Source: Candidatus Heimdallarchaeota archaeon B3_Heim (GTDB taxonomy: Archaea > Asgardarchaeota > Heimdallarchaeia > Hodarchaeales > Hodarchaeaceae). Taken from it: DNA of 32,000 nt. The stretch is from assembly GCA_003144275.1 (NCBI GenBank), contig NJBF01000034.1, positions 1 to 32,000 on the forward strand, in the 5' to 3' direction. Under the pieces are notes generated by a model that searched no databases, was not told where the DNA came from, and saw only the letters and a program-made list of their open reading frames with translations. The number at the start of each line of letters is the position of its first letter. Position 1 is the stretch's first letter. Both the position numbers and the translations under genes were made by a program. Positions 1,355 to 27,190 of the stretch are shown piece by piece.

Positions 1355-3106
1355 GTGAGTAAAATTGTACGAATAAATATGAATAAACTTTCCTCTGAAT
1401 GGGAAAATGTCCCCAAAAACTACGTTCATTTAGGTGGAAGAGGAATAACTTCAGCTATCGTTGCAAACGAAGTTGATCCTCTTGCAGAACCTTTAGGGCC
1501 AAAAAATAAATTTGTGGCTGCTCCTGGATTTATCACAGGCACCACTGCACCAAGTACTGGACGATTGTCGGTCGGAGGTAAATCTCCCTTGACTGGTACA
1601 ATTAAAGAAGCCAATGCAGGGGGATTGAGTGCCCAAAAACTGGCTCGTTTAGGAATTAAAGCTTTAATCATAGAGGGTTTTCCTGAAGGTGATGATTGGT
1701 ACAATATTTATCTAACTAAGGGAAGGTGTGAACTTGTAAAAGCAAATGAATTTGTCAATATGGGTCTCTATGATTTAATTAATCGTCTGTGGAAAAAATA
1801 CCCCAACAAACCTGGAATTTTTGGTTGCGGAATTGCTGGACAACAGTTAATGTTTAGTGCAGGAATTTTTGGGAATAATCCTGATAATTCAGATCCAGGC
1901 CGGTATGCGGCTCGTGGAGGGCTGGGTGCTGTTTTGGGGTCCAAAAGAATAATCGCCATTATCACTGATGATACAGATTGTGCCCGACCAAAGCCAAAGA
2001 ACCCAGAATTATTTGAAATTGGTAGAAAGAAGCTTGTAAAAGGATTACTGAAGCATGAAGCAAGAGAAGCTCTAAGGGATTATGGAACAGAGGGATTAAT
2101 GAATGTTATGAATGAAAGTGGAGGGTTACCCACACGAAATTGGCGAAAAGGATCCTTTGAAGGTGCAGGTAAAATTTCGGGGGAAGCTATCAGAGAGTTA
2201 GTTGATAAAACAAAAGAAAAATTTCCAAAATCTCAAGCACGAACTGGATGGCCGTGTAATCCAGGGTGTGTCATTGGTTGTGCTAATAAGGTGCCATATC
2301 CCTTGAATCATAAGAAAGCAGGAGCAATTCAAGTTTCAACTTTAGAGTATGAAACCGCGATGGCATTAGGCTCTCTGTGTGAGATTGATTCATTGTATCA
2401 TCTGGCAGAATTGAATCGAATCTGTAATGACTTGGGACTTGATACAATTGAAGCAGGAAATACTTTAGCTGTTGCAATGGAAGCAGGAGTGCTTGAATTT
2501 GGTGATGGTGCGGGAGCGATCAAATTACTCAATAAAGTGAAAACTAAAGATCCAGTTGGTAGATTACTTGGATTAGGCGCTTTACGTTTTGGTCAAGCTT
2601 ACGGTGTCACTCATGTAGGTCATGCAAAAGGCCAGTCTCTACCAGCATTCGATCCAAGACCATTAAAAGGAATTGGAGTGACATACGTAACAAGTCCCCA
2701 AGGTGGAGATCATACAGAGGGATATACTATTTTTTCAGAGATTGAAGGAGTGAATCCAGTCGATCCACGAGATAAAGCTAAAGGAGACTTGTCACGATTT
2801 TACCAAGTATTTACTGCGTTTATTGATTCGATCGGCTACTGCCTATTTACTGCGTATGCCCTTCTAGAAGATCCTTTAGCGAAAGAAGGTATGCTGGAAA
2901 CAGTTCGTGCCATGTTAGGGGTCGAGGAATTTGATCTAGAAACATATGGGATGGCTATTTTGGAAATAGAAAATGATTTCAATAAAAGAGCAGGATTTTC
3001 CGAGTTAGATAATAGATTACCAGATTTCTTTTATACTGAACCACTTCCTCCAACTAATGAAGTATTTGATGTTCCTGATTCAGAAATAAAAAAAGTTTTC
3101 AAGTAA
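1355..3106 (+). CDS. aor: Tungsten-type aldehyde:ferredoxin oxidoreductase family protein
   Basis: LGGRG, KSPLTG, ANAGG, GRGGLGAV-like (ARGGLGAVLGSK), CxxGCxxGC (CNPGCVIGC), EYET and DLGLDTI motifs; 583 aa. Confidence 0.93.
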   Translation: MSKIVRINMNKLSSEWENVPKNYVHLGGRGITSAIVANEVDPLAEPLGPKNKFVAAPGFITGTTAPSTGRLSVGGKSPLTGTIKEANAGGLSAQKLARLGIKALIIEGFPEGDDWYNIYLTKGRCELVKANEFVNMGLYDLINRLWKKYPNKPGIFGCGIAGQQLMFSAGIFGNNPDNSDPGRYAARGGLGAVLGSKRIIAIITDDTDCARPKPKNPELFEIGRKKLVKGLLKHEAREALRDYGTEGLMNVMNESGGLPTRNWRKGSFEGAGKISGEAIRELVDKTKEKFPKSQARTGWPCNPGCVIGCANKVPYPLNHKKAGAIQVSTLEYETAMALGSLCEIDSLYHLAELNRICNDLGLDTIEAGNTLAVAMEAGVLEFGDGAGAIKLLNKVKTKDPVGRLLGLGALRFGQAYGVTHVGHAKGQSLPAFDPRPLKGIGVTYVTSPQGGDHTEGYTIFSEIEGVNPVDPRDKAKGDLSRFYQVFTAFIDSIGYCLFTAYALLEDPLAKEGMLETVRAMLGVEEFDLETYGMAILEIENDFNKRAGFSELDNRLPDFFYTEPLPPTNEVFDVPDSEIKKVFK

Positions 3107-3127
3107 TCTCAGCATAAAAAATCACAA

Positions 3128-3147
3128 TGTTGGGAGATATTCCAACA
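3128..3147 (+). terminator. Possible hairpin downstream of aor
   Basis: TGTTGG-GA-GATA-TT-CCAACA inverted repeat about 20 nt after the stop codon; no clear U-tract. Confidence 0.25.
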
Positions 3148-3224
3148 AATAGCAGTTTCAAACAACTCCATTTTTAAAATTCTGACAAAAGGCCTCGTAG
3201 ACTGATTAGTCAAAAGATTTTTAC

Positions 3225-4994
3225 TTGAATCGATCTCTTAGACGTGGTATACACTTGAAAACCTCAAATAACATATCAGATAAACCAGAAAAGGATGACT
3301 TTGGACTTGATTTTATCCGAAAGATAATTGTTGAGGATATAAGAACTAATAAAAACGAAGGACGAGTCCATACGCGTTTTCCTCCTGAACCAAATGGTTG
3401 GATGCACATTGGACACGCTATGGCAATCTATTTAAGCTATAGTGTCGCTCAAGAATATAATGGCCTTTTTAACCTTAGGTTTGACGATACCGATCCTTCC
3501 AAAGAAAGTATGGACTATGTAGAGGCAATTAAAGAGGATGTTCAATGGTTAGGGGCTGAATGGGAAGATCGATTATATTTCGCTTCAGATTATTTTGAGA
3601 AACTGTATGAATTTGCAGTTGCACTGATTAAGGCTGGTAAAGCATTCATCTGTGATTTGAGTGTTGAGGAGATAAGAGAACAAAGAGGAACTCTAACAGA
3701 ACCAGGAGTAAACAGTCCTTACCGAAATAGATCAGCGGAAGAAAACTTTGATTTCTTTACGCGAATGCGTGAAGGTGAATTTGAGGATGGTTCTAAGGTC
3801 CTGCGCGCTAAAATTGATATGACTTCTCCAAATCTTCTAATGCGTGATCCGATCATGTACCGAATCAAAAGGGTAAGTCATTATAGAACTGGAACAGAGT
3901 GGATAATTTACCCTAGTTATGATTTTACTCATGGGGAATCTGATGCAATTGAGGGAATAACTCATTCTCTCTGTTCACTAGAGTTTGAAACCCATAGGCC
4001 CTTATATGACTGGTTTATAGATGAATTACTAGCATTAGGAACATTAAAACATAAACCTCGGCAAATTGAATTTTCTCGCTTGAATGTAACATATACTATA
4101 ACGAGTAAACGTAGATTATTAGAATTAGTTAAGGGAGAATATGTTTCTGGATGGGATGATCCACGAATGCCAACAATAGCAGGGATGCGGAAACGAGGAT
4201 TCCCAGCAAGTGCGATTAGAACTTTTCTTGGTAGAGTGGGTGTTACAAAGAGAGAAAAAAATATCGATGTTGGTTTATTGGAAGCGTGCGTTCGTGATGA
4301 ACTAGATAAGGAAGCTAATCGTGTATTGGCAGTCTTAAATCCCCTACGAGTTGTTATTACTAACTATCCAGAAGACCAAGTAGAACATCTAGAAATACCA
4401 AATCATCCAAAAGATGAATCTAGAGGTACCCGTAAAGTACCGTTTTCACGAGTGCTTTATATAGAGCAAGAAGATTTTATGGAAGACCCTCCTAAAAAAT
4501 TCTATCGATTAACGCCGGGTAGAGAGGTTCGATTACGGAATGCATATTTTATTACATGTACTGATGTCAAGAAAGATGAGTCTGGGAAAATACTTGAAGT
4601 GCATTGTACATATGATCCCAACACAAGAGGAGGATCTTCTCCAGATGGAAGAAAAGTAAAAGCAACCATCCATTGGCTTTCCCGAGATCATGCGTTGAAA
4701 GCGGAAATTCGCTTATACGATCGATTATTCAATCGAGAAGATCCCTTAGGTTTACTTGATTATAATTCTGATTCGTTGAAATCGATAATTGGATATGTAG
4801 AACCCAGTTTAAAAGAAGCTAAACCAGCTACCCACTATCAATTTGAACGAGTAGGATATTTCTTTGCTGATCCAGAGGAATTTACAAAGAAAAAACTAGT
4901 TATCAACCGTACGATTACATTACGTGATACTTGGGCAAGAATCAAGAAACAACTTCCTCAACCAAAGAAAAAGAAGCAGAAAATAAAGAAATAA
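3225..4994 (+). CDS. glnS: Glutamine--tRNA ligase (bacterial-type GlnRS); start may be the TTG at 3255
   Basis: [63 protein letters not shown], two beta-barrel anticodon domain motifs ([25 protein letters not shown]). No eukaryotic N-terminal or YqeY appendage is visible. Confidence 0.95.
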
Positions 4995-5031
4995 TTCTTC
5001 TTGATAAATTCGGATTAAAAACTAAAGGTAA

Positions 5032-5535: not shown

Positions 5536-5607
5536 CAGCCCCATCCAGATTCGAACTGGAGTCTTCAGATTCAGAGCCTGAGGTGCTAACCACTACACTA
5601 TGGGGCT
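5536..5607 (-). tRNA. tRNA-Gln (CTG)
   Basis: Cloverleaf AGCCCCA / D-arm GTGT..GCAC / TCAGG-CT CTG AA-TCTGA / TCCAG-TTCGAAT-CTGGA / TGGGGCT-G. No intron; CCA not encoded. Confidence 0.95.
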
Positions 5608-5648: not shown

Positions 5649-5723
5649 TGGCAGCCCCGTCCAGATTCGAACTGGAGTCGTGAGGGTCAAAGCCTCATAT
5701 GATAGCCTCTACACCACGGGGCT
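5649..5723 (-). tRNA. tRNA-Gln (TTG)
   Basis: Cloverleaf AGCCCCG / TGAGG-CT TTG AC-CCTCA / TCCAG-TTCGAAT-CTGGA / CGGGGCT-G-CCA. CCA is genomically encoded; no intron. Confidence 0.95.
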
Positions 5724-11645: not shown

Positions 11646-13349
11646 ATGACAATTTTCGAAGAGGCCGAAAGTCTTTGGAAAACGTATGTAGCTCATAAAA
11701 AGTGGTTTTCCACGGTATTAGGCGAGACGTGGTATGTACGTTATCCGGTGGATTCAATCGGAACGGAAGAAGCTAAAACCTACAAACGGTCCCTTTTCTT
11801 GGGTGATGATTCTGTTCATGCATGGGAGGCAACAGGTGTACGTAACAAAATTATCCAGCGTTTGATTGATAGCTCTGAATGGAAAATTCGTCCGTGGTAC
11901 GGTGATCTTGGATTTTTTGCTGACCAGATTAGATTTCTTCCTCCCGTTCCAGAAAATGAGTTAGATTTTGTTGTTCGGAAATCATTATTAGCTGAAGATT
12001 ATTTCTCTAGCAGAGATCGGTTTAAAGATACCCGAATCGGACTTCTTAGCTTTCTAGACCCTGAGATAACGGAAAAACCCGAACAGTCCTCATTCATATA
12101 TGATTTAAATCGACCAGAAGATATTGCAAAAAAATATTCAAAATGTCAAATTGAACTTTATGGCTTATTGTCGATAATAATCACTAAACTCTATATCTTA
12201 TCGGATGAAGAAGTATCAGAAGTCATAGATTTCCTTTTTGATTATGACACAGCCGATAAATTACTTGTACGTCGTTTCATTAAACCTAATCGGGATGATA
12301 ATCGTCCCTTCATCGGGGAGCAAAATCCTCATACAAAATTGAAACCTAACTTCTTACTTCGATATATTGCCGGTGAAGATCCAGAATATTTTCCCTACCG
12401 CATCTTTCACTTATGGCTTCGCTTATTGCTAGCGTTTGACGCGAAGGCAGTTACAGTCCTAGAGGATATGAAAATTGATGTCGTTGAAGAATTCCCTGAT
12501 ATTGAGACAATGAAGAGCGCTTTGCTCTTTTCGACAAGGTTGAATCAATTTAATACAGTGAAAGATAATTTCAGAGCAAAATTGAGAAGTGAATATGCTC
12601 AACAGCGCAATTATAGTGGATATATGTCAGAATTTATTCATATTCTACAAAGTCAGAGAGAACTATTTACTGAGAAGCCCAATTCTACCGTTCTTTCGAT
12701 GCTTGATTTAACAAAGTACCAATCTCAATTCCTATGTCGTGAATTAGGTGACGTAATGATTGAATCAGTCCTGAAAAATCTGGGAAAGCAAATACCTGAA
12801 CCTGAAGGTGTGAGTAAGATTCAATCGAGGCTAATTTTGAATCGAAGAATCAATAATCTTGAAAAATATGTACTCACCAAGGAAGTTGAAGCTGAAGTTA
12901 TAAATATTATAATAAACTTGCATACGCATTTAGGGAGTGAAGCAGAGGAACAAGCTATTGAGGATGCGTTCAAAATTACCTATGATACTCTAGTTCCAAG
13001 AGGAGAAGTTTATTTCAATGAATTAGAGAAAGAAGTTAAAGAGGCTCAAGCTGAAACAGGGGGTATGGATGTAAGAAAGGAACTAATGGAAACTACAGAT
13101 ACACCGCAGAATTTAGCTAAACAGTATGGTAACAAAGCACTTAATCTTGTTGACGACGAAGCTTCAGTAGCTGACATATATTCAAGCATACTAGCATTAA
13201 AAAGTACTGAACTAGCATTTGGAGGAGGAAATATTTCAATATTACAGCAAAGAAAGATTACTCAGTCATTTATTGAGCTATTTAAAGAAGAGTTTAGATT
13301 CCTGGGGTTATTAACGAAAACTTCGGTTGATGGAGCACAGGAGGAATAA
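11646..13349 (+). CDS. Hypothetical 567-aa soluble, largely helical protein (gene 1 of GTPase operon)
   Basis: Long ORF with no TM segments and no recognised motif; 5 nt from the next gene. Confidence 0.8.
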   Translation: MTIFEEAESLWKTYVAHKKWFSTVLGETWYVRYPVDSIGTEEAKTYKRSLFLGDDSVHAWEATGVRNKIIQRLIDSSEWKIRPWYGDLGFFADQIRFLPPVPENELDFVVRKSLLAEDYFSSRDRFKDTRIGLLSFLDPEITEKPEQSSFIYDLNRPEDIAKKYSKCQIELYGLLSIIITKLYILSDEEVSEVIDFLFDYDTADKLLVRRFIKPNRDDNRPFIGEQNPHTKLKPNFLLRYIAGEDPEYFPYRIFHLWLRLLLAFDAKAVTVLEDMKIDVVEEFPDIETMKSALLFSTRLNQFNTVKDNFRAKLRSEYAQQRNYSGYMSEFIHILQSQRELFTEKPNSTVLSMLDLTKYQSQFLCRELGDVMIESVLKNLGKQIPEPEGVSKIQSRLILNRRINNLEKYVLTKEVEAEVINIIINLHTHLGSEAEEQAIEDAFKITYDTLVPRGEVYFNELEKEVKEAQAETGGMDVRKELMETTDTPQNLAKQYGNKALNLVDDEASVADIYSSILALKSTELAFGGGNISILQQRKITQSFIELFKEEFRFLGLLTKTSVDGAQEE

Positions 13350-13354
13350 AAAAT

Positions 13355-15301
13355 ATGGTAGACTTATCTAACATCGAGAAACAACTGGAAGACGAATTTG
13401 GTCAATTGGGAATTAATTATTTATTTCCCCAGCTAGATGTTATTCGTTCAGCTCGAAATTTAGCATCTAATATCGAAGATGCACGATTAATGACAGAGAA
13501 ATTCTTCTTATCCTATAAAATGATTGAGCAATGGCTAGCTCCGGTAATTGTTCCAATTAATGATAACTTATTTGGTCTAGAATCACATTTACGTGACCTT
13601 CAATCGCAAATTAAGCATCTCATTACAGAAGAAGAGATAATATATTGGAAAGATGTAGCAAATAGTGAAAATGCCAGTATTAAGTCCTTATTTTCTGATA
13701 TCGACTCACTACGGAAGTATATTCTCGATCAACGTGCAAAATTACTTCAATCCGCACATCGACATGAATTACCAGAGTTATTTGGTTTAGTCCTTTGGCC
13801 TTATACTGAATACACTGATGTAAAAGACGCAGTAAATGATGTACGGAAGATTTATTTTGGGCCAAACAATAGTTATCGAAAACAAAATCTTCTAACTGAT
13901 GCATTAATACTTACCGCATTATCGGAAGATGTATTAACTCATAAATCACAAACAAGGCAATCGTTCCATCAAATTGATAGTTTAATCGAAACCTCTCTTA
14001 CTTTTAGACGGGTTGAGGAGCAATTTGAATGGTCTAAGTATCAGCGAGATCCAAGTGACGGACAGTTTAATGAAGGTCAAGTGTTCTCAATAATGGACAA
14101 TTTAATGCCTGGATATCCACGTGATGAACTCAGAAAAGGACTGAACACATTTTATGATTCATCTCTCGATAAGTACCCCATTGGTAAGTTTATAGCATGG
14201 CTTTCAGATATCATGCGTATGAATACTATGGCAAAAAGTCAGGGGGAAGACCGACCAGGTGAATTACGACTCAAGAAGGAGCATTTACTAGGGCTCTCAA
14301 TTATGGATAAACATCGCAACAGCGAAGTACTTGGGAATATTGGAGATCTGCAAGGCACATTTGAAAGAATACTAGCGCCATTTCACGAATTGAAACAGAA
14401 TAATGTGTTCATGCAAAGTTCTCAATTTGTGATAGATAATGTGCTAGAAATTCCTTCAAGAGCCTGGATATACGACTACAGTGGTGTTGAAACAGAAATC
14501 CTTAGATCCACTCTATTCATGCTATCTGATAGACAGCCAAAGTTTGATGTCTTAGAAATTTGTCAAAAATTATCCAATATTGTCTTATCAGGCAGAGTTA
14601 ATAGGAATGATCTTAATGATGGGAATTATGTCTTAACGAATAAATTATCTGTCAGATTGTGGGACTATATCAGCAATCAACTGATGAAACTTCTTGAAGA
14701 GACGTTGATTCACGAGGAAATTCAATCTGTTCGTTTGCTTAAGAGCATCTTTTCAAGTGAGGATACGACATCATTGATCACTGCAAAGAAATTTGCTCCA
14801 GTATACCAAGTAAATATCGATTTCAAGCGGGGAATCTCTTTTGATGAGAAGGGTGTTCATCCAGAGACATTAAGCATTTGGATCCGCTCTGGATTTCCAT
14901 TTGAATATCGCTACGCCCAAATGGCCGGCTATCCTTGGTTTTTTGACACAAACCTTTTACTAGAATCACTTGTAATTGAAGCTTTATCTCTTCCATCCTT
15001 TAAAGTTTCTTCACTTCATGAAAATGTTAAATTACGACAAGCAGTATTTATGGTTGATGATTTAACTTATATTATCTATTATGATACTCATCCCGAGGGA
15101 ATATCTGCGTTGGCGTTTAAAGAAGTCGATATTATGGATGAAGCTGGTATTGATCCTGTTGAGATTATTTATCGTCCCCACAAATACCTATCATTGGGTC
15201 CAGAGAAAAATAATTTACATTTAGTTTTAGATAATGCACGTGCTAAAGATCCTAAGGATCTAATGACTGTTATTTCAAATATTAAGTATAAAAGGAGATA
15301 G
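13355..15301 (+). CDS. Hypothetical 648-aa protein with N-terminal coiled-coil-like region and putative C-terminal longin-like domain (gene 2)
   Basis: Long ORF; RBS GGAGG upstream. The C-terminal LSIWIRSGFPFEY...DTNLLLESLVIEAL...AVFMVDDLTYIIYYD follows a longin-like beta-beta-alpha-beta-beta-beta pattern (inference). Confidence 0.78.
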   Translation: MVDLSNIEKQLEDEFGQLGINYLFPQLDVIRSARNLASNIEDARLMTEKFFLSYKMIEQWLAPVIVPINDNLFGLESHLRDLQSQIKHLITEEEIIYWKDVANSENASIKSLFSDIDSLRKYILDQRAKLLQSAHRHELPELFGLVLWPYTEYTDVKDAVNDVRKIYFGPNNSYRKQNLLTDALILTALSEDVLTHKSQTRQSFHQIDSLIETSLTFRRVEEQFEWSKYQRDPSDGQFNEGQVFSIMDNLMPGYPRDELRKGLNTFYDSSLDKYPIGKFIAWLSDIMRMNTMAKSQGEDRPGELRLKKEHLLGLSIMDKHRNSEVLGNIGDLQGTFERILAPFHELKQNNVFMQSSQFVIDNVLEIPSRAWIYDYSGVETEILRSTLFMLSDRQPKFDVLEICQKLSNIVLSGRVNRNDLNDGNYVLTNKLSVRLWDYISNQLMKLLEETLIHEEIQSVRLLKSIFSSEDTTSLITAKKFAPVYQVNIDFKRGISFDEKGVHPETLSIWIRSGFPFEYRYAQMAGYPWFFDTNLLLESLVIEALSLPSFKVSSLHENVKLRQAVFMVDDLTYIIYYDTHPEGISALAFKEVDIMDEAGIDPVEIIYRPHKYLSLGPEKNNLHLVLDNARAKDPKDLMTVISNIKYKRR

Positions 15302-15306
15302 AAACA

Positions 15307-16410
15307 ATGTCAGACACAAGAGAAGAATCAATAAATGCTGGAAGACTTCTCGTTGTAGGTACTCAAGGCGGTGGTAAAACCGCATTAGTAACCATACTAG
15401 CAGCCCGTACAGATCAATCAATGAGTTATGAAGAGGATTTCGGGGGTACAATCGAAACAGAATATCTACGTATTTCATTTGATGAAGGGCGATTTTTTAG
15501 CCTATTATTGCCCGTAGGTGGGCAAGAAAAGTGGCAGAAATTACGTGAACGTTTTGGTAGTACAGCAGAGGGTATGATTATTATTTTAGATTCTTGTACC
15601 AAGAAATTCTGGGTTAATTCTTTATCACAAGCTACATCTATCTCCTCTTTCTTACCGTATGACAATTACCCAATTGCTCCTGTAGTAACCAAACGAGATT
15701 TGAATGAAGGAATTCGTAAAGAAATAGATAATTTCGCACAGACAATCATGGACGGTTTAGAACAGGCCAAAACGTCTCCCATCGTATATTATAGTCGGGG
15801 TTTCCGTATAACAGAAAGAAAAGTTGATCTTCTTGGAGAAATAGTCCCATTCACGATCTTAGAACAGATTATTATCAACAGCTTAGAGTCAAAGTATTTC
15901 ACTGGATTAGTACCAGGTAATGCACGAAAAGGGAAAGTACTGTTGCCAGGATTTAGCCTAGTAAATTGTCGAATTTTGAGTAGAGCATTAACCCAAGAAT
16001 TATGTACTACAACCGAGGGAGACCAGATGGAAATCCTCGGGTTATTGAATGATATGAGACCTAGTATGCTTGAATTAGACACTAATTGGGTTGATTTACT
16101 ACAAAAATATCCTAAAGCAGGAGCTGAACCTCAAGTAAATATAAATGATTTATCACTTGAAGCAATAAAAGATACCATACTCAACAATCTCCTAGCAAGT
16201 GATGCAGATATTAGTGATTTTGTATCAAAACTTGGAACTCTTAATCCAAAGACAGGATGGAGCGTAAGTGGTCATGAACATATCTCAATTTTCGAAGATG
16301 AGGGATTAGGATCTGCAGCTACTCTTATAAGAAAAATGATGGTTGATGTGAAAGAGAGCGTTCGAGTAGACAAATTCAGTGTATTTAATCCAATTGAAGA
16401 ACTTTTTTAG
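15307..16410 (+). CDS. Divergent small-GTPase-family P-loop protein with large internal insertion (gene 3)
   Basis: G1 GTQGGGKT, G2 GTIET, G3-like PVGGQE, G4 TKRD; RBS GGAG upstream. Confidence 0.85.
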   Translation: MSDTREESINAGRLLVVGTQGGGKTALVTILAARTDQSMSYEEDFGGTIETEYLRISFDEGRFFSLLLPVGGQEKWQKLRERFGSTAEGMIIILDSCTKKFWVNSLSQATSISSFLPYDNYPIAPVVTKRDLNEGIRKEIDNFAQTIMDGLEQAKTSPIVYYSRGFRITERKVDLLGEIVPFTILEQIIINSLESKYFTGLVPGNARKGKVLLPGFSLVNCRILSRALTQELCTTTEGDQMEILGLLNDMRPSMLELDTNWVDLLQKYPKAGAEPQVNINDLSLEAIKDTILNNLLASDADISDFVSKLGTLNPKTGWSVSGHEHISIFEDEGLGSAATLIRKMMVDVKESVRVDKFSVFNPIEELF

Positions 16411-26569: not shown

Positions 26570-27190
26570 ATGTCACGAGCAAAAATGGATTTCGCTGAGG
26601 GAATATTCCGCTCAAATTTCAAGGTGTGTGTGCTTGGTGATGGAGGGGTTGGTAAAACGGCAATTATTCAACATTTACTGGGTAGGGCGTTTACAACGAA
26701 TTATCTACTTACCATAGGAACAGATATTTCGACATTTCAGCTTCATCATAATGGCAAAAATCTTCGTCTGCAGCTTTGGGATCTGGCCGGCCAAACTCGA
26801 TTTGATGTTGTTAGGAACTTGTATTTTAGTGGTGCTCGTGCAGGTGTTCTTGTTTTTGACCTGACCCGTGAAACATCACTTCACTCCCTTGCTAAATGGA
26901 AAAAAGAAATCTTCAGCCATTCTCAACGAAAAGTTCCCCTACTTATACTTGGAAATAAGTCTGATTTGGATGGTTCTCATTTCTCCTATCTTGATCCTGT
27001 TGACAATTTCATCCAAGAGATTGAGAAAGAATACAATAATGAATATGAGAATAACGAATTACAGGTTCCTTTTCACACAACTTCTGCCAAAACAGGTAAT
27101 AATATCTTGAAAGCCTTTGATTCCCTTGGACAAATATTGTTGACCTATCAAAAACAGACTAGTGCTATTCCAAAAATTCCATTGGAATAA
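26570..27190 (+). CDS. Rab-like small GTPase
   Basis: GDGGVGKT, TIGTDI, RLQLWDLAGQ, YFSGA, LVFDLT, GNKSD and TSAK; no C-terminal Cys. Confidence 0.92.
   Translation: MSRAKMDFAEGIFRSNFKVCVLGDGGVGKTAIIQHLLGRAFTTNYLLTIGTDISTFQLHHNGKNLRLQLWDLAGQTRFDVVRNLYFSGARAGVLVFDLTRETSLHSLAKWKKEIFSHSQRKVPLLILGNKSDLDGSHFSYLDPVDNFIQEIEKEYNNEYENNELQVPFHTTSAKTGNNILKAFDSLGQILLTYQKQTSAIPKIPLE

Follow-up and report, generated by a model that had tools for sequence, protein, structure and literature searches.

Does an archaeon charge tRNA-Gln directly with glutamine, and if so with which enzyme, on which tRNAs and alongside what else? According to a 2022 review, no archaeon has glutaminyl-tRNA synthetase (GlnRS), an absence explained by an incompatibility between archaeal tRNA-Gln and GlnRS (PMC9499178). 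The locus described here raises the question because it places a bacterial-type glnS gene next to two glutamine tRNA genes in a genome assigned to Hodarchaeales. The window, meaning the whole 32,000-nucleotide stretch that we analyzed, covers the opening 32 kb of a contig 49 kb long (GC 0.355), which comes from a metagenome-assembled genome (MAG) of 3.95 Mb that is 94% complete, with 3.9% estimated contamination and a GC content of 0.361. The features on which the argument turns are:

3225..4994, + strand: glnS, bacterial-type glutaminyl-tRNA synthetase (TIGR00440, Pfam, scores against P. aeruginosa and E. coli GlnRS, residues)
5536..5607, - strand: tRNA-Gln(CUG), 72 nt (ARAGORN; Rfam tRNA 63.8 bits; tRNA-Gln covariance model 86.4 bits)
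5649..5723, - strand: tRNA-Gln(UUG), 72 nt plus CCA (ARAGORN; Rfam tRNA 56.9 bits; tRNA-Gln model 85.7 bits)

The listed glnS open reading frame at 3225–4994 (+) encodes 589 amino acids, from a TTG start to a TAA stop. No ATG precedes the conserved core; TTG 3225 and TTG 3255 are both start candidates, and a 98%-identical relative has its start called 10 codons shorter. The protein scores 687 bits against the glnS equivalog model TIGR00440 (cut-off 425.8) and 823 bits against NF011291 (cut-off 681), its top-scoring NCBIfam model. The best GluRS model, archaeal TIGR00463, falls short of its cut-off (334 bits against 401.75), and GluQRS models reach at most 68 bits. In phmmer comparisons with solved structures, scores were 677 bits for P. 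aeruginosa GlnRS, 649 for E. coli GlnRS, 508 for D. radiodurans GlnRS, 422 for human GlnRS, 409 for yeast GlnRS and at most 252 for GluRS; identity to E. coli GlnS is 52%. Pfam recognized the class Ic catalytic domain (PF00749) and the anticodon-binding barrels PF03950 and PF20974, and found no match in this protein to the eukaryotic N-terminal domain (PF04558/PF04557) or, at its C-terminus, to a YqeY domain (PF02637). The NF011291 match spans profile positions 12–572 of 769, so the protein is not a GlnRS/YqeY fusion, and the absence of YqeY makes the public, NF011291-derived product name of its orthologues misleading. The protein begins at position 88 of the TIGR00463 profile and thus lacks the ~90-amino-acid N-terminal domain of archaeal GluRS. 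These comparisons confirm that 3225–4994 encodes an intact GlnRS of bacterial type.

We then asked whether the gene belongs to its archaeal host. The proteins closest to the window GlnRS (69–98% identity) are named Hodarchaeales, Hodarchaeota, Heimdallarchaeota or Promethearchaeota. Across the phylum, GlnRS was found in 43/301 sampled genomes, only in four families of one class: 11/20 genomes of f1 (the window's genus), 21/29 of f3, 9/11 of f7 and 1/2 of f2. It was not found in the other 26 sampled families, including the two largest (0/76 and 0/68) and, within the same class, f4, f5 and f6. The 3.9% estimated contamination and the 63–65% identity of the window protein to bacterial GlnRS could raise the suspicion that a contig of bacterial origin was mis-binned with the archaeal genome. 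This is refuted by orthologues in one-contig Heimdallarchaeia genomes (G241, G256, G026 and G074), and the Asgard-type flanking tRNAs, the Ras-family GTPase genes on the same contig and the composition of the glnS region (GC 0.367–0.368 over 3001–5000, near the contig and genome values) also speak against it. Its probability is next to nil, and we treat mis-binning as excluded.

Much of the first-pass annotation of this DNA is borne out at this point, namely an intact bacterial-type GlnRS with catalytic and both anticodon domains, the absence of the eukaryotic N-terminal appendage, an Asgard host, an AT-rich composition like that of the neighbouring DNA, and the classical view that archaea lack the enzyme, as the review states it. 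The novelty that it implied is not: NCBI annotation already names GlnRS in many Hodarchaeales and Heimdall MAGs, and a 2024 Heimdallarchaeia preprint lists GlnRS, with no comment, among coxABC neighbours in Hodarchaeales and Kariarchaeaceae. Full-text literature searches, whose coverage leaves out most subscription journals, found no paper analysing archaeal GlnRS.

Two further observations concern the genomic surroundings. The window carries a Ras-family GTPase at 26570–27190 (+) and, at 11646–16410 (+), two large open reading frames (567 and 648 amino acids) with no above-threshold family match, with a weaker Ras-like GTPase match at 15307–16410 directly after them; the 567-amino-acid frame has one weak actin-like match (E 0.004). 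Together, 11646–16410 and 26570–27190 may form an Asgard signature-protein cluster. Separately, an f2 genome, from the sister family of the window's genus, contains a GlnRS-like frame of 587 amino acids (G286:C57:1212-2636) that scores 347 bits on TIGR00440, below the cut-off, and may be a divergent GlnRS or a GluRS paralogue.

Whether the enzyme could act as a GlnRS was assessed residue by residue in an alignment that included E. coli glnS, whose row served to calibrate the literature numbering. Conserved in the window protein are R30, P32, E34, the HIGH motif at 40–43, D66, L136, Y211, H215, S227, C229, F233, Q255, S269, K270, R341, R402, R410, R412 and Q517. Among these are the glutamine-pocket residues of E. 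coli GlnRS (Arg30, Tyr211, Gln255, Cys229, Phe233 and Asp66), which are unchanged in the window protein, as they are in 11/11 other aligned Heimdall sequences. Also kept are Leu136, the acceptor wedge, and the anticodon readers R341, R402, R410, R412 and Q517, which accompany the two anticodon-binding barrels (PF03950 and PF20974). At the aligned Leu136 position, the giant-virus proxies for the eukaryote type (L127 and L135) have a gap. Relative to E. coli GlnRS, D235, which reads the acceptor stem there, is Thr, K401 is Tyr, and the KMSKS site reads T-S-K instead of M-S-K, a form in which the class I motif is still recognizable.

After its last conserved motif (window 4935–4991), the enzyme carries a Lys/Arg-rich C-terminal tail of 18–22 residues, of which 9–11 are K or R. 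This tail occurs only in a subclade comprising G000, G107, G181 and G190; other f1, f3, f7 and bacterial enzymes have shorter tails. Eukaryotic synthetases carry lysine-rich RNA-binding appendages, which the tail resembles.

A clue to the likely substrates of the enzyme lies ~550 nt downstream of glnS where, beyond a small PNPOx-like gene, the two tRNA-Gln genes are found. Both have an A1-U72 pair, discriminator G73 and C3-G70 rather than G3-C70; the CUG tRNA has G10 and its CCA is not encoded, and the UUG tRNA has CCA encoded at 5649–5651. The discriminator rule for tRNA-Gln is A73 in archaea and G73 in bacteria (PMC9499178). Aligned with tRNA-Gln from eight Asgard families, the window tRNAs have the acceptor stem and T-arm style of these molecules and depart from them in the last base and in a D-loop that is shorter by one base. 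Judged by sequence, they are plainly native Asgard-type tRNAs and not bacterial tRNAs imported with glnS.

We surveyed tRNA-Gln with a covariance model over all 83 genomes of the class and read stretches individually. The covariance model took the place of a phylum-wide BLAST search with the 72-nt tRNA, to which most tRNA-Gln had been invisible, even those of the genus; ARAGORN intron-mode anticodons proved unreliable (Pyl, Phe and Lys were called for CUG/CUA tRNA-Gln-like genes), and loops were read by hand. A tRNA-Gln gene lies within ~1.5 kb of glnS at most f1 loci and many f3 loci, and glnS with two tRNA-Gln genes is a conserved syntenic cassette in this Hodarchaeales genus. In f1, each tRNA-Gln beside glnS combines G73 with an Asgard-type body, and the genomes also carry A73-type tRNA-Gln elsewhere, usually intron-bearing. 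The window's genome has such an A73-type copy away from glnS, and of the four tRNA-Gln genes in the closed genome G256, two have G73 and two are of A73 type. All GlnRS-positive genomes of the genus have a tRNA-Gln model match (best E ≤2e-18), the copies read being G73, and the GlnRS-negative genomes mostly lack such strong matches, with the exception of G062 and its A73-type copy. Because the genes are linked, this joint pattern could reflect either real presence and absence of the cassette or assembly gaps.

Beyond the genus the association between G73 and GlnRS loosens. In GlnRS-less lineages (families f27, f14, f11 and f6, and genome G265 of f2), all tRNA-Gln found has A73, and A73 was likewise read in families f7, f6 and f2, in f3 genera g4, g6 and g8, and in f4 genera g5, g12 and g16. 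Most tRNA-Gln of GlnRS-bearing f3 and f7 has A73 – f3 genus g7 is mostly A73, with G73 in some CUG copies – and the GlnRS-less f4 genera g13, g14 and g17 have G73 in tRNA-Gln(UUG). We consequently no longer regard G73 as clean evidence of co-evolution with GlnRS. That G73 is an adaptation to GlnRS is plausible from the tRNA sequences, although G73 in GlnRS-less f4 together with A73 in f3/f7 makes the underlying correlation a weak one. The archaeal-A73/bacterial-G73 rule holds broadly, with G73 not exclusive to GlnRS-bearing lineages.

Some tRNA-Gln-like genes have unusual anticodon loops. The A73-type, intron-bearing gene of the window's genome, outside the window at C10:37765-37873 (+) (L304:1501-1609; 68 bits on the tRNA-Gln model), has the loop UUCUAUA, giving an amber-reading CUA anticodon where most of the genus has CUG. 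The CUA form is common to G107, G181, G190 and G304, and by its anticodon one spare copy of A73 type in the window's subclade has turned into an amber-reading tRNA. Genome-wide TAG reassignment was considered and rejected: 21% of long frames have TAG as their stop, and same-frame junctions show no enrichment. In f3 genus g7, a conserved tRNA-Gln-like gene between glnS and tRNA-Gln(UUG) (L022:1168-1242, L028:1132-1206 and L032:1165-1239) has a 6-nt anticodon loop, UUUAGG, in a 5-bp stem; ARAGORN assigns it no anticodon, and a UUA reading is possible.

The cassette bears on whether the protein might be a GlnRS-like paralogue with another job, such as tRNA modification in the manner of GluQRS or regulation, and have no role in translation. 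In favour of such a paralogue, the GluRS/GatDE route is complete in this genome, so that GlnRS is not strictly needed. We nevertheless regard it as very unlikely: the protein is full length with both anticodon-binding barrels, its checked catalytic, glutamine-pocket and anticodon-reading residues are all kept, GluQRS models give at most 68 bits, and linkage to both tRNA-Gln isoacceptors is genus-wide.

That indirect route defines what the GlnRS adds. The first-pass annotation had read glnS as implying direct Gln-tRNA synthesis in an archaeon and had proposed a genome search for gatD, gatE and GluRS. All of them were found above their cut-offs in the same genome, with GatD (476.7 bits) and GatE (334.8 bits) adjacent on contig C61 and an archaeal GluRS (497.9 bits) on C19, so the archaeal transamidation set of GluRS, GatD and GatE is complete. 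Within the class, 78/83 genomes have GatD, among them all closed ones that are GlnRS-positive. The direct-synthesis claim is therefore upheld in that GlnRS is present and amended in that direct charging has been added to the indirect route and has not replaced it. GatDE is reported to read the D-loop and A1-U72 of tRNA-Gln (PMC9499178); since the G73 tRNAs keep A1-U72, they may serve both routes. The two Gln-tRNA routes may also have separate tRNA sets.

The f7 genomes (e.g., G119, G229, G235 and G289) each have two full-length GatD genes above the curated cut-off in addition to GlnRS. Asgard GluRS (loci L243, L244, L246, L253, L254 and L249) falls into two deep groups, one of which (f18, f15, f22 and the f3 genome G026) is 29–34% identical to GlnRS and the other 26–29%. 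The GluRS of the window's own genome sits on a long branch in the tree.

The GlnRS of families f3 and f7 differs in architecture from that of the window. These proteins have ~640–650 amino acids – one f3 protein is named Heimdallarchaeaceae by NCBI – and their first ~90 residues match the N-terminal domain of archaeal GluRS (NF003169 positions 5–91, E 5.6e-17; TIGR00463 positions 2–84). This domain shares only 29–43% identity with the N-domains of present-day Asgard GluRS, the GluRS of the same genome included, which makes it old and not a recent graft. It is absent from the best 150 of 1.84 billion cluster representatives, and a word-index search for it returned matches only among close Heimdall relatives. 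Its phmmer alignments extend into the N-terminal region of eukaryotic GlnRS, against which hhalign gives E 0.014–0.02 with a probability of only 2–3%.

To place these enzymes, we built a FastTree phylogeny (201 sequences, with 30 Asgard GluRS as the root) and IQ-TREE phylogenies under LG+G4, which is not a site-heterogeneous model. The GlnRS clade, window protein included, has support of 100 against the Asgard GluRS outgroups; the phylogeny of GlnRS and GluRS proposed in the initial reading thus groups the protein with GlnRS. In the FastTree phylogeny, the Heimdall sequences form a single clade (support 98) within crown bacterial GlnRS, with the E. coli group, giant-virus and eukaryote-type sequences outside the crown bacterial plus Heimdall group. 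A 59-taxon IQ-TREE set included nine GlnRS whose eukaryote type was confirmed through PF04558/PF04557, together with a diverse selection of 21 cluster representatives. In its maximum-likelihood (ML) tree, the eukaryote-type clade (97.3 SH-aLRT) is sister to all bacterial and Heimdall sequences, and Heimdall lies inside bacteria behind nodes of 96, 89.6, 94.3 and 93.1. Lacking PF04558/PF04557 and placed in the bacterial GlnRS clade, the window GlnRS belongs to the bacterial-type lineage and not the eukaryote-type one, a robust result. The bearing on the origin of eukaryotic GlnRS that the first-pass annotation implied is accordingly lost, as the window enzyme stands apart from the eukaryote type.

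The trees differ on how the Heimdall sequences relate to each other. With 63 taxa, the ML tree split f1 from f3/f7, both inside bacteria. A quick IQ-TREE search with 89 taxa also split the Heimdall clade, was 94 lnL worse than the Heimdall-monophyly tree and was not used for conclusions. In approximately unbiased (AU) tests, Heimdall monophyly had p-AU 0.36 with 63 taxa and 0.60 with 59, where it is the best topology; a monophyletic bacterial type with Heimdall outside had p-AU 0.29 and 0.19, respectively. No tested topology was rejected. We consider it most likely that the GlnRS was imported from Bacteria, anciently and once, and we infer both the direction and the number of these transfers.

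Two separate imports from Bacteria are rather unlikely. In that case, the window's genus would have received one enzyme, which lacks the N-domain and goes with G73 tRNAs, and the f3/f7 lineage another, which has the N-domain and goes with A73 tRNAs. The 63-taxon ML tree has this form, grouping f1 with sequences from Syntrophales and Acidiferrobacterales, and f3/f7 with one from Planctomycetota. The window protein is also as distant from f3/f7 (55–61% identity) as from bacteria of many phyla (56–63%), and f1 and f3/f7 differ in both architecture and tRNA solution. The case for a single clade is that Heimdall monophyly performs at least as well as the unconstrained tree, that FastTree supports it at 98, that monophyly was 94 lnL better than the quick tree and passes with p-AU 0.36, and that it is the best topology with 59 taxa.

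The direction of transfer might instead be reversed, with prokaryote-type GlnRS arising in Heimdallarchaeia from an archaeal GluRS that bore the N-domain, and Bacteria as recipients. We judge this unlikely, and just as unlikely its corollary that the f3/f7 N-domain is ancestral and was lost in the window's genus and in Bacteria. Its attractions are that bacterial-type monophyly with Heimdall as sister is not rejected (p-AU 0.29 and 0.19), that the f3/f7 N-domain matches the archaeal GluRS N-domain and is old (29–43% identity), and that eukaryote-type GlnRS branches as sister to prokaryote-type GlnRS in its entirety. Were it true, the window enzyme would descend from the original donor lineage and would not be an import. 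The topology that it requires nonetheless lies 26–32 log-likelihood units below the best tree, and the ML and FastTree phylogenies both nest Heimdall behind several bacterial lineages. Moreover, GlnRS was not found in sampled f4, f5 or f6, nor in any other sampled Asgard family, and the N-domain is in none of the best 150 cluster representatives.

Taken together, we consider the following account probable as a whole. The glnS product would be a functional class I tRNA synthetase of bacterial type, specific for glutamine, that charges tRNA-Gln directly with glutamine. Its likeliest substrates would be the products of the two adjacent tRNA-Gln genes, which keep the weak A1-U72 pair and have the bacterial-type G73. 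The ancestral route, archaeal GluRS plus GatDE, would have been retained along with A73-type tRNA-Gln copies, such that two routes to Gln-tRNA-Gln coexist. The gene would have entered by a single import from Bacteria into the ancestor of three Heimdallarchaeia families and then been inherited vertically; two of the three carry the archaeal GluRS N-terminal domain, and the window's genus is without it. Both the activity of the GlnRS and the use of tRNAs by each route are predictions from gene content and sequence.

This is a known enzyme family found in a host group thought to lack it, with a conserved and testable tRNA cassette. GlnRS-bearing Heimdall genomes break the rule that archaea have no GlnRS, and do so in the archaeal group closest to eukaryotes. 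They suggest two natural ways round the supposed tRNA barrier – a GlnRS linked to G73 tRNAs, as in the window, and a GlnRS with a GluRS N-domain, as in the sister families – and make the tRNA-incompatibility hypothesis directly testable with a few recombinant proteins and transcripts. They also provide a natural example of a cell in which two routes lead to the same aminoacyl-tRNA, possibly with separate tRNA sets. The view of eukaryote-type GlnRS as a separate lineage is not changed by the window GlnRS alone.

Among characterized systems, bacterial GlnRS (E. coli GlnS, PDB 1GTR/1QTQ; P. aeruginosa, 5BNZ; TIGR00440) shares its domain order and length with the window enzyme, and the cognate-looking window tRNAs resemble the bacterial system in G73, G10 and a weak 1-72 pair. 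Unlike that system, the host is an archaeon, GatDE coexists, and the tRNAs have A1-U72 and C3-G70 where bacterial ones have U1-A72 and G3-C70; unlike E. coli GlnRS, the enzyme has Thr for Asp235, Tyr for Lys401, TSK at KMSKS and a Lys-rich C-terminal tail. The chimeric GlnRS of Heimdallarchaeaceae and f7 belongs to the same Heimdall lineage in the best trees and, like the window's, often adjoins tRNA-Gln and coexists with GatDE, but it has the extra ~90-amino-acid N-domain and mostly A73 tRNA-Gln as predicted substrates, whereas the window enzyme has no N-domain and G73 tRNAs. Deinococcus radiodurans GlnRS has a C-terminal YqeY domain (PDB 2HZ7; NF011291), and NCBI names the window orthologues after NF011291; the window enzyme has no YqeY and scores 508 bits against 2HZ7, below its E. 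coli score. Eukaryotic cytosolic GlnRS (human, 4YE6/4R3Z; yeast, 4H3S) is also glutamine-specific and has the same catalytic and anticodon-binding core, but the window enzyme lacks PF04558/PF04557, scores only 409–422 bits against it and falls outside its clade (97.3 SH-aLRT). Finally, the archaeon HMET1 has two PylRS/tRNA-Pyl pairs distinguished by G73 versus A73 (PMC9499178). As there, one archaeal cell here holds two tRNA sets per amino acid differing in the discriminator base; the amino acid and enzyme family are different, and the orthogonality shown in HMET1 is conjectured for tRNA-Gln.
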